Part shown: positions 7,078 through 48,350 of the stretch, piece by piece | Layout: every line of letters begins with the position of its first letter | How positions within the stretch are numbered: position 1 is the first letter of the stretch | Assembly (NCBI GenBank): GCA_951406725.2 | Contig: OX597821.1 | Location: 2,852,001-2,916,000 of the forward strand | DNA: 64,000 nucleotides | DNA from: Octopus vulgaris | Taxonomy: Eukaryota | Reading direction: 5' to 3' | Position numbers and translations under genes: made by a program | Notes under the pieces: model-generated | The model's database searches: none | What the model saw: the letters and a program-made list of their open reading frames with translations, nothing else | What the model was told of the DNA's origin: nothing

Positions 7078-7230
7078 AGCTGCAGCGTGGAAGATGTTTG
7101 TAACCAATTTAAGAACACACAAAAAAACCGTTACATTCATTTCAACGTCTAAATTTAATTTGTGTCAAAATATTTTCTTTGCTTTGAAACCGTGACCTGT
7201 TCGCTGACACAACTTCGTGCTGCATCTGAG
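7078..7230 (-). mobile_element. PLE pLTR-like fragment with HHR-like fold (7161-7211)
   Basis: Homologous to 48185-48350; follows (TA)n. Confidence 0.6.
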
Positions 7231-7742
7231 AAAGTAACAGCTACTTCAAGATATATATGTATTTATGTATGTATATAAACAGATCAAGTCACTTGTTATG
7301 CAAGTATATCTCCGCAATTCTGATAGCTTGAGCCAGGTTACTAAAACTCTGAGGGCAGCCGTTACTTGTTGCTTGAGGAAAATAATGCCGAAGCAGCATC
7401 ATCTCATGAAATACTGCATCTCACTGAAGGTTTATCCGAAAAAGGATTCACAAAACAGTAGAAACACCAACCCTAAAAACATGACAAGCATAGAGACTAA
7501 GACATATTTTGATGACGAACCTGAAATATAAACTATATGTACAAATTGCCACTAAAAAAGGGGGAAACGAGAAGCCAACCTAAAGGGAAGAACTTACTTA
7601 ATATTCGGGAAATGAAACAATTAAAAGGCCTACTCCGACGTTAATGTAACTCTATGGAACAGGAGCGTTCAACTCGTTGAAGAGAAACGTGGACGTTACA
7701 ACTACCATATATTTATAACTACCCATATATTTATAAAACTTA

Positions 7743-7930
7743 AGGTAGCGAGCTGGCAAGAACATTGCCATGCCGGGTGAAATCCTTAGCGGCATTTCGT
7801 AAGTCTTCACCTGCTGAGTTTAAATTCCACCGAGATCACCTTTGCTATGCATTCTTTCGGTATTCATAAAATAATCCCCAATTGAGTCCTGAAGTCGGAG
7901 TAATTCACTAATCTCCTCTCTTGTGTCAAA
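7743..7930 (+). mobile_element. SINE family B
   Basis: aaggtagcgagctggcaagaa...ctgagtttaaattccaccgag. Confidence 0.75.
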
Positions 7931-8114
7931 CTTTGAAGTCAATATATATACGTACACACGTACATACATACACATACACACACACACACACATACACACA
8001 CACACATGTATTAAAATTTATATTCGGTATTCCACCAATTAATAAAACTGGCAGTGATTGTGAATGTCATTTTAATGTAGTGTTGTCGTGCTATCAGAAT
8101 GAGTTTTTGTTAAT

Positions 8115-8300
8115 AAGGTAGCGAGCTGTCAGAATCGGTAGCATACCGGTCAAAATGCCGACCGGCTATGCCAGCGGGGTAGACTTTGTTTCACCCTCAG
8201 AGTCGATGAGATAAGTACCAGTTGAGCACAGATGTCGATGAATCGACATCGCCCCTCATACGAAATTGCTGGCCTGATGCTAAAATTTGTGACTAATATA
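8115..8300 (+). mobile_element. SINE family B, internally deleted
   Basis: aaggtagcgagctgtcagaatcg...gtcgatgagataagtaccagttgagcac. Confidence 0.7.
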
Positions 8301-8619
8301 AATGTTATTAATGCTTAGCCGAAAGTTAGAATAATAATTATCAATGTTGGTTCTGAGGTCATTCCCGTTTAAATTCAAGTGAAGTTTTTTCCAGACGTTT
8401 TGTTCTAGTGAATATGGTTAGACATTCATAAAAAGTAATTGAATTTTCAGCTACTACACTGCATTGTTATAATAACAACAAGCAACAAATGAGGGGACCT
8501 TTAAGCAGTCACTCAGTGTTCCCAAGATAACAGTGAACTATTCTTAAAATGACACCTTAGAAATCTATAGTGGTATAGTGCTGTAGAAAAGGTTGTTTTT
8601 TATAACGTACTCTTAGATA

Positions 8620-8800
8620 AAAGCGGTGAGCTGGTAGAATGCTTCGCAGTGCAGGCGAAATACTTAGCGGCGTTTCCTCCATCTATAACTTTCTGATTTC
8701 GAATATCATTGAGGTCGAGATTGCTTTTAATCCATTTGGGTTCGATAGAATAAATACCAGTTAATCACTTGGTTTGATGTAATCGACTTACATCCTCACC
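8620..8800 (+). mobile_element. SINE family B
   Basis: gcggtgagctggtagaa...gaggtcgagattgctttt...gatgtaatcgactta. Confidence 0.7.
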
Positions 8801-45639: not shown

Positions 45640-46690
45640 ATATAAATAAAAATACACTTATATTCCTATTTAGAGACCAATTTGTCCTGCTAGAAAGAAA
45701 TATATATACATATACATACATATATATATATATATATATATATATATATATATGTATGTATGTATATATATTCGTTGCATTGTGGTTATTTGATGCAATA
45801 TATATATTGTTTTTGTTTTGCAATTCATATTTGTTTTCACTTGTATTTACTTCCCATTTTTGAGTCTTTCGCTTGTCCCTTGCTCAATTTATTCACATGT
45901 CCCACGACAGGGGTCTCTTCAGATGGTTACTTCCATCGTTTCTTTTTCGAATCTGAATCTCGCCTTTGTTAGGAGTCTCTTGAGTTTAGGTGGTTGTCTG
46001 CGACTGTTGATAATTTGTGGTTTTTCAATTATTCGTTGGAGATTTCGTGATTGACCTAGAATTGTGTTGGGGGGGGGGGGGGTTTCGATGATGTTGTGGT
46101 TTCTAGGATTGCGGGTGTCTACAAACGGAAAATTTGTATTTGAATTTGTAACTTACACTCCTGCGTTGCATGTTTCTCCATTTGTTAGAGATCGGGATTG
46201 TCTTTGCGTTTGTTATGCTATGTTGAATTAACTTGTGATATTTTTTGTTTCTCAAGGAATATATTAAGTTCTGCCAGTTCTTTCTCTCGTTTATCAGTAT
46301 CTGAGTCTATTGAGCATATGTCTATTTCCATATTAAATGGTCTGTTCCTTTTTGCATGGGAAGATCTAAATATTGGTGTGTGTCTGTGTCCTTGTAGTAG
46401 AGGTCAGTTGTAACTGTCTCATTTTCTTTAATTATAAGGGGGAGTTCATGTTCATTCATTTCTATAATGAATTGGATTGAGACATGAATGCTATTTATTA
46501 ATCTCAGAAATTTAGTAAGGTGCTCATTAATTCGGTTCCAAAATAGAAAGCAGTCATCTAAGAATATTTTCCAGTTTCCTATAAGGTATGTTTTGAAGTT
46601 GTGGTCAAAAGTAGTTCTGGATAGACTGTAGATTTTTCTTCTAGAATCCCCATTACTAGTGTGGAAAATATTGGTACGAGTTTCGTCGCC
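45640..46690 (-). mobile_element. Degenerate Penelope-like element: RT fragment plus 3' pLTR
   Basis: WKIFLDDCFLFW...SIQFIIE...LP...TDLYYKDTDTHQYL; CTGAAGA...GAAAgacTC at 45853-45926; (TA)n at both ends. Confidence 0.85.
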
Positions 46691-46714
46691 ATTGCGGTGC
46701 ATATATATATATAT

Positions 46715-46860
46715 AAATGTGAAATTCTTAGTAATAAGGTATTTCATAAATTCCTTCTTAGGTGGGACTGGAATGTCTTTCAGTGACATGCCAACATCTC
46801 CATTAATACCAGAGAAACTCCGTATAATATTACTCTAGTTAAATAAGAATATAAAGTACC
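46715..46860 (-). mobile_element. N-terminal fragment of a second PLE
   Basis: MSLKDIPVPPKKEFMKYLITK resembles the SLKNIP.P....Y...LI.K N-terminus of PLE ORFs of the type at 62-64 kb (recalled motif). Confidence 0.5.
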
Positions 46861-47479
46861 AAACTGAGGATAAGAAATCCATTTCACTGTTGCGTCAGTT
46901 CGATAACATATAAGTATTGGTATAATTCAATAATAAAGATAAATTAAATATAGAGATATTCTTTGGACATTCAATAATTTATTTATAGTACAATATTACA
47001 TTAAATGGTATGAATATAATACATAGCATAACATAATGTTATATAAATAATTATAAAATTCCTAAAAGTCCAATACGTATAATCACTGTTCAGTTATATA
47101 TAAGTAACTTCAGGCTCAATTCGGTTCAGAAATACGAAACTCTGTCTGGAAAGGGCGTCTGGGTTCTGAAAATTAATTCAAATGTATGTGTTATGAGCGT
47201 GAGCGTTAATTATTAAATCTTATATCAATTGCAATTAAAACACAACACAAAATTACCTATAAGACGAATAATGTTAAAACGTATACGTCTGGTATTAAGC
47301 TGATAATAAGATATTAAAAATCGTAAGTAAATATTGAAACCCACGGATATTAATAGAAAAAACATGTATAAACAGAAACAGAAACGGGCATATCCTGAGC
47401 GAAAACTAAGATGTAATGGTCAGAGCATTCATTCTAATTCGCTGTAAATCACAGATAAAACATTGACTATATACAGACT

Positions 47480-48090
47480 AAATCTAAAATCCGTTCAGTC
47501 GAAGTCGACTCTCGGTTACTCAAGGGATCAGTGTTCTCCAGCGAGTTCTATCCTGGGTCGCTTCTTTCAGATTGACTATGGTCATTCCTGGGTCACTCTT
47601 GATGGTGTCAAGCCAGTGGGTTCTTGGTCGGCCTCTTCCTCTCTTGACTCTGACCATTCCGAGCATGATGTCCTTTGCCAGGGATTTTTTCCGCATGATA
47701 TGACCAAAATATGCTAATCTATCCTTGGTGATCATACCTTCTAGCGACAGGTTCGGCTTGATCTGGCTAAGAACTTCTCCATTAGTGAGCCTCGCTGGCC
47801 GTAAAAGTTTTCTCCAACACCAAAGCTCGAATGCATTAATTCTCTTCTGGTCAGATTTCTTTAGTGTTGAGGTCTCGCATCCATATGTTGCTATAGGGAA
47901 GACGATTGCATTCACCAAACTGCATTTGGTAGCGAGGCTGATGTCTCTACTCTCCGAGACCTTGCTCATGCTGACCATTGCCTCTCTGAGTAGTACTACC
48001 CGCCGCCTTATTTCTGGAGTGCAGTTAGCATCTCGATTTATTTTGGAGCCAATGTAGATGAAATCATCAACCACTTCGATCTCTTCATTA
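47480..48090 (-). mobile_element. 3' end of RTE/BovB-like LINE
   Basis: IEVVDDFIYIGS, VFPIATYGCE, INAFELWCWRKLL, YFGHIMR, RGRGRPRTHWLD; gagtcgacttcgactga terminal stem-loop. Confidence 0.93.
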
Positions 48091-48184
48091 TGTATATACA
48101 CACACACACCCATATATATGTATATATATATATATATATATATATATATATATATATATATATATATATATATATATATATATA

Positions 48185-48350
48185 AAACACAAATATAACT
48201 TCAGCGTGGAAGTTGTTCTATAAGCCATTTAAAAATACACAAAAACCGTTAAATTCACTTCAACATTTAGATTTCAGTTGCCAAAATATTTTCGTCGCTC
48301 TGACACCGCGACCTGTCACTGACAAAATTCTGTGCTATACAAATACATCT
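48185..48350 (-). mobile_element. PLE pLTR-like fragment with HHR-like fold (48278-48325) in (TA)n
   Basis: Minus: ttgtca-GTGACA-g-gtcgc ggtgtcaga gcgac-GAAA-atat-TT-tggcaa; homolog at 7078. Confidence 0.65.

Follow-up and report, generated by a model that had tools for sequence, protein, structure and literature searches.

A hammerhead-shaped RNA with a natural G3:C8 core pair in the pLTRs of Penelope-like retrotransposons of Octopus vulgaris

Introduction

Minimal type I hammerheads of Penelope-like retrotransposons are located in the pseudo-long terminal repeats (pLTRs) of their host elements (Cervera and de la Pena 2014, PMC4209133). As described there, they contain an unpaired base between positions 9 and 10.1, a G10.1-C11.1 pair, a short palindromic stem III that implies dimers and, frequently, U17, and they occur as thousands of solo copies and as close inverted pairs. 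The same features are found in a repeat family of Octopus vulgaris that has two copies on the minus strand of the DNA studied here, a 64,000-nucleotide stretch of contig OX597821.1 (hereafter, the window). These two copies are decayed pLTR copies of a Penelope-like retrotransposon, which encodes a reverse transcriptase (RT) with a C-terminal GIY-YIG endonuclease (EN), in a 2.8-Gb animal genome. The difference from the described hammerheads lies mainly in the core. The text of PMC4209133 gives C3:G8 and U3:A8 only, its descriptors were unable to find G3, and none of the rows of its Fig. S3 that were examined starts with G, whereas the octopus family has G3:C8. Stem I is also longer here (7 bp).

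The pair between nucleotides 3 and 8, which holds nucleotide 8 in place, is an established contact of the active fold (PMC8495972). Evidence for the C3-G8 pair came from crystal structures and engineered swaps, while natural covariation is described as U3:A8 in the sources consulted (Perreault 2011, PMC3088659; Schistosoma Cercyon, PMC4209133). U3:A8 is also a natural compensatory change, and one of the octopus families described below is such a case. However, U3:A8 requires two transitions and leaves the order of pyrimidine and purine unchanged, whereas G3:C8 takes two transversions and reverses it. As far as the sources go, G3:C8 itself is an engineered pair: C3G partly rescues G8C (reviewed in PMC8495972), and C3G/G8C partly rescues cleavage of the Anolis Poseidon hammerhead, a Penelope hammerhead that needed the protein of its element (PMC11167929). 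Unlike the engineered pair, the one described here is natural, is fixed in an amplifying family and has U17 alongside. No natural G3:C8 core was found in the literature text searched, in which figures are unsearchable; Lunse 2017, on Penelope hammerhead variants, could contain one.

We propose that the pLTR specifies a hammerhead-shaped RNA, naturally G3:C8, that remains a ribozyme and cleaves itself slowly, and we put the probability of this reading, made from sequence, at about 0.6.

Results and Discussion

The family state of positions 3 and 8

Three DNA searches gave 90 loci, from which one duplicate (L061) was removed, and 95 alignments that span the motif, some of which represent both arms of a single insertion. 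The core is exactly GTGAACAG in 75 of the 95 copies, with G3 in 92, C8 in 86 and U17 in all 95. A preliminary description of the window had merged the imperfect cores of its two copies into GUGAACA, with C3 and G8 exchanged; the consensus of the many genomic copies is GUGAACA, and the merged core is thus the real state of the family. Copies selected by the tail only agree (G3 and C8 each in 21 of 23). The remainder of the core is well preserved, with U4, G5, A6, A9, G12, A13, A14 and the A15.1-U16.1 pair each present in 90 to 95 of the 95 copies, the additional G that follows A9 in 94, G10.1 in 93, and C11.1, which is subject to CpG decay, in 80. Stem III is the palindrome AAUAUU. In Penelope minimal hammerheads, the extra base, a palindromic stem III and U17 are all usual. 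The cleavage triplet is UUU, which fits NUH; the canonical letters C3 and G8 are absent from the family consensus. UUU had been predicted and regarded as a weakness. The triplet stands, but its weakness counts for less, since U17 is common among the representative Penelope minimal hammerheads in Fig. S3 of PMC4209133, where the oyster row reads UUU.

Genome-wide, an exact G3:C8 pattern has 7,090 matches, compared to 16 for a reversed control, and a pattern left open at positions 3 and 8 has 13,798 compared to 151. The former is a stronger control than shuffling of the window, where a descriptor fitted post hoc to both copies has two matches, while 100 shuffles give 0.07 on average (two or more in 1 of 100). 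G3 and C8 are also the majority letters in contigs assembled from eight public runs, which bear four organism labels in total, a type of data with no bearing on expression, ends, strand or level; no other letter at either position reaches 10% in four of these runs or exceeds 3.5% in the four further ones. G3:C8 is fixed in two families, A (which includes the window copies) and B. A C3:G8 source subfamily within A and B was considered and rejected, as none of the first 100 of 135 matches without G3 has both C3 and G8 next to a loop of the A or B type.

The host element

The motif lies within the pLTR of an element encoding RT and endonuclease at locus L092 and at loci L128-L132. Copies end at two sharp 3' points ~58 nt apart, which delimit a tail, and are often found in (TA)n and often with an inverted partner; such ends, sites and partners are insertion features of Penelope-like elements (PMC8557442). 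L092 consists of an inverted pLTR, RT and endonuclease remains, and then a pLTR with tail. The younger relatives at L128-L132, recovered by protein search, constitute family B. Their open reading frames (ORFs) of 646-1025 aa lie beside the motifs, and tandem pLTRs are present. Six family B pLTRs that were compared are 98-100% identical, and all 12 motifs detected in the five young loci read GUGAACA. Since young, near-identical copies next to long ORFs carry G3:C8, the swap belongs to amplifying source elements and is not a product of decay.

In the L130 frame, Pfam identifies GIY-YIG at residues 915-1005 (E 1.8e-5). It returns no RT match, and the RT was assigned from its motifs, by eye, against published rows. 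The arrangement resembles that of the Nematis/Neptune-type C-terminal-endonuclease elements (Craig 2021, PMC8557442), for which the source likewise describes RT followed by GIY-YIG, a CX3CxxC linker, partial tandems, inverted 5'-truncated copies, a tail and (TA)n targets; the tandems, truncated copies and tail are all present here, as for endonuclease-containing Penelope-like elements. By eye, the linker resembles the Nematis rows, a clade in which a CX2-5CxxC linker with short spacing is expected; a placement there would be tentative. The elements of PMC8557442 differ in having a tail of 30-40 nt and in lacking, as far as described, the long insert that precedes the GGAIG motif in the octopus RT. 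The Hydra and Naiad clades were ruled out by domain order and RT motifs. Fragments that by eye are like Hydra-clade Penelope proteins (L097 6590-7357 and L021 2656-3135) are located near members of the G3:C8 family and are unrelated to it.

Coding constraint was rejected as an explanation for the core: the reading frame from the upstream ATG ends early in family B and later in family A, so that the two share no peptide. About 21 nt 5' of the A/B core (L052 1546-1549), many copies start at a TCAG-ATG junction that follows a branch-point-like ACTAAC and a pyrimidine tract, and this point could mark either a splice acceptor or the site where transcription starts.

Sister families and covariation

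Seven families carry the motif at the same pLTR position. Three are G3:C8 (A, B and E, the last old and sparsely sampled), three are C3:G8 (C, D and F), and one is U3:A8 (H). Family C (L133-L138) has a 1312-aa frame, without a Pfam match of any kind, that is 56-57% identical to family B in the RT-EN region; its youngest copies combine A9C with U17, and its older copies A9 with C17. Families D and F have a CUGAAGA core. By hand count, C3 is present in 20 and G8 in 23 of 26 family F copies, and G3 and C8 in none. Family H (L172-L176 and L182), 52-54% identical to B, has the core UUGAAAA, with U3:A8 in 8 of 8 copies, an AAUU stem III and the triplet UUU. Family E, for which ten pattern matches were collected and nine counted after removal of one D-like match, mostly reads GUGACCA, with G3 in six and C8 in five of the nine and mostly transitions in the others. 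Its link to A and B comes from downstream DNA identity, which is clear in only two of four copies (0.61-0.66). G3:C8 is likely the original state of this old family. U17 is the majority letter in all G3 families examined, and it also occurs in family F and in young family C. The latter two are C3:G8, and U17 as an adaptation to G3 was rejected on these grounds.

In an RT tree, families C and H are sisters and the G3:C8 lineages group together; the tree is midpoint-rooted, does not contain D, E and F, and leaves out 12 of 48 loci with a short or no ORF match. C3:G8 is presumably ancestral, judging from its near-universality elsewhere, and the U3:A8 of family H is probably a second event, separate from G3:C8.

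A 14-row alignment of real copies has positions 3 and 8 paired in every row (six CG, six GC and two UA). Over all pairs, 90% of the cells are paired, compared to 23-50% in slid controls, and in 7 of 12 pairs both members change, with such double changes in stems I, II and III. G5, A6, G12, A13 and A14 are invariant. At the level of sequence, the compensatory behavior of the 3:8 pair that the preliminary description had cited as known is also seen in evolution, where G:C, C:G and U:A occur in homologous families.

The copies in the window

Copy 1 (7161..7211, minus strand) is a decayed family A hammerhead. Stem I (tgtgtca/tgacaca) pairs 7211-7205 with 7167-7161. The core reads GCGAACA, with G3 at 7204, C8 at 7199 and a U4C change, and stem II is broken. 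GAAA (7177-7174) and AATATT (7174-7169) are followed by U17 at 7168, and the predicted cut is between 7168 and 7167. The surrounding pLTR remnant (7081..7274, minus) is 81% identical to the young family B pLTR. The plus strand at 7280..7709 holds a further, inverted part of this element, comprising the tail and a 5' part of the ORF with stops (79% DNA identity to family B; blastn and tblastn). In L128 the tail continues into the ORF, and the inverted piece is from the start of that ORF.

Copy 2 (48278..48325, minus), also of family A, has G3 at 48319, C8 at 48315 and U17 at 48284, with the predicted cut between 48284 and 48283. Its 5-bp stem II (gtcgc/gcgac) is intact, and N7 is deleted. Its pLTR remnant (48189..48336, minus) has (TA)n at its flanks. 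The end of an inverted element tail (48334..48357, plus), recognized by comparing the window with the tail ends of other copies, abuts the 5' side of copy 2. The stem I, GAAA and AATATT letters originally reported for the two copies, and the single 5-bp stem II, were confirmed by reading the sequence, and neither copy is intact, as had been cautioned. Activity is unlikely for either.

Both copies carry the extra G between A9 and G10.1. They align over ~140 nt at 75% identity and are thus copies of a larger repeat; the homology of both runs over 140-190 nt. A third remnant, from the pLTR of sister family C (15288..15475, minus), contains a C3:G8 hammerhead at 15453-15409, with C3 at 15447, and provides an internal control for the G3:C8 copies in the same window. 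A 226-aa open frame (~47500-48090, minus) adjoins copy 2; it is presumably the C-terminal RT part of a long interspersed nuclear element (LINE).

Predicted fold and proposed mechanism

Fold z scores are about -1 for the window copies, -3.2 for family B and -2.7 for family A. Closing stem III within a monomer is predicted to cost ~5 kcal/mol; with stem III presumably unable to close in the monomer, AAUAUU would pair between two copies. As regards a tertiary contact between loops I and II, the predicted folds show no conserved distal stem I, and no further examination of it was made.

We envisage a single origin of the swap, in a descendant of a C3:G8 ancestor and on the branch leading to E, A and B. 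U17, already present in the C3:G8 family F, would have allowed it by avoiding a G3-C17 trap. In the model, G3·U17 pairing in the ground state would slow cleavage, although less than G3-C17. A G3-C8 variant is stated to be less active with C17 than with G17, with data not shown in the source (PMC3884650). The 3:8 pair would be kept by selection through its positioning of nucleotide 8 at the active site. Two RNA copies may pair by way of the palindrome in stem III, and a cut following U17 would process tandem element transcripts. Such cleavage would be slow, would need dimer formation or the protein of the element, and would probably be helpful to insertion without being required each time.

Is cleavage retained?

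Several observations weigh against the proposed ribozyme. In the lowest-energy fold predicted, stem I is extended by a pair between G3 and U17, and the family B double hammerhead, at -27.2 kcal/mol, lies ~4 kcal/mol above the best cofold at -31.3, so that it appears feasible in the model but not favored. The 14 alignment rows are related by descent and are not independent; their pair-count and type-count measures are reached in 36 and 462 of 500 shuffles, respectively, and the G3:C8 swap probably happened a single time in evolution. The 5' truncations show no significant peak at the cut site. Among 130 anchors, 35 intact or indel-shifted ones were set aside, and 4 of the 95 truncated ones were dropped for breaks beyond -24. 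The remaining 91 have 16 ends within -16 to -14, where 11.2 are expected (p=0.09), and 6 exactly at the predicted cut, where 3.6 are expected (p=0.16), in a sample biased by its origin in two patterns and by-eye choice, mainly on contigs C1-C2, with both arms of some inverted pairs. Unpaired G3:G8 accounts for ~43 of the first 100 of 273 copies without C8, and C3:C8 for only 9 of the first 100 of 135 copies without G3; scaled to 273 and 135, these hand counts make G3:G8 ~10 times commoner. G3:G8 copies are found with several different loops, and both pLTRs of L092 carry G8, where a template with a broken pair was likely copied. The excess would be consistent either with a hotspot of mutation or with a source element that went on transposing with its pair broken. 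A9C in the young and successful family C hints at relaxed selection on catalysis in the clade, and another Penelope element did not need cleavage for insertion in vitro, according to PMC11167929. Together, the absence of a truncation peak, the G3:G8 copies and A9C suggest that cleavage is weak or optional. As a separate observation, G3:G8 copies concentrate in one loop-II subfamily on contig C16, the G000:C16 cluster (L046, L048, L049, L057, L058, L067 and L119).

Part of this evidence would also be expected if the fold, including the 3:8 pair, were kept for a non-catalytic role, such as RT binding or RNA stability, in a G3:C8 form that no longer cuts usefully. We consider this unlikely, but it has support of its own: besides the predicted G3·U17 extension, the missing truncation peak and A9C, thousands of insertions extend across the site, which makes uncleaved RNA the usual template, and functions other than cleavage are left open in the text of PMC4209133. 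On the other hand, the pair that was kept is a contact of the active fold, engineered G3:C8 keeps partial activity, and the five invariant core letters hold in all 14 rows. It is considerably less probable that the motif is a dead vestige in which G3 and C8 were unrelated changes of a source element, complementary by chance and spread by amplification. A swap by two transversions through an unpaired intermediate, probably made once, would be compatible with this, as would the existence of G3:G8 copies that were likely copied. However, G3:C8 lasted through E, A and B despite changes in N7, in loop II and in the length of stem III, the stems covary, and the second independent double change, in family H, is complementary as well.

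A chance likeness to a hammerhead in another kind of repeat is scarcely credible and is largely refuted by the sister families and the covariation. The sisters carry CUGANGA at the aligned place, and the octopus motif agrees with the published Penelope one in its pLTR position, its additional base following A9, its G10.1-C11.1 pair and its palindromic stem III. The Rfam matches listed for the window (150 of 320) and for three loci (150 of 158) include no hammerhead model, which would agree with chance likeness, but none is listed for the C3:G8 sisters in L153 and L156 either. The blank extends to canonical sisters, and the Rfam result is thus uninformative; the listed matches are microsatellite-driven miRNA.

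For the slow G3:C8 ribozyme that we prefer, the two parts differ in strength. It is highly probable that the swap is real and under selection on the fold, while retained cleavage is somewhat favored. Tentatively, the family could represent the first natural and active G3:C8 hammerhead, fixed in a young amplifying family and enabled by a prior C17-to-U17 change, with three Watson-Crick states in one clade and a GUGANCA class invisible to CUGANGA-based searches. G3:C8 in at least 7,000 genomic copies, together with the C3:G8 and U3:A8 sisters, provides evolutionary support for the 3:8 pair and ready natural controls, and indicates that abundant hammerheads escape standard descriptors. It also bears on the role of hammerheads for Penelope elements, as a family thrives with a probably weakened core. 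The copied G3:G8 and A9C variants make it possible to ask whether cleavage is tuned low or dispensable.

Other features of the window

An isolated, degraded fragment of eukaryotic large-subunit ribosomal RNA is located at 27592-27910 (minus; 65.6 bits, above the gathering score). The output of general repeat finders is dominated by microsatellites. A dispersed repeat of several hundred bases, with copies 75-88% identical, is present at 13289-13725, 53393-53792, 2271-2716, 18016-18161 and 37318-37447.

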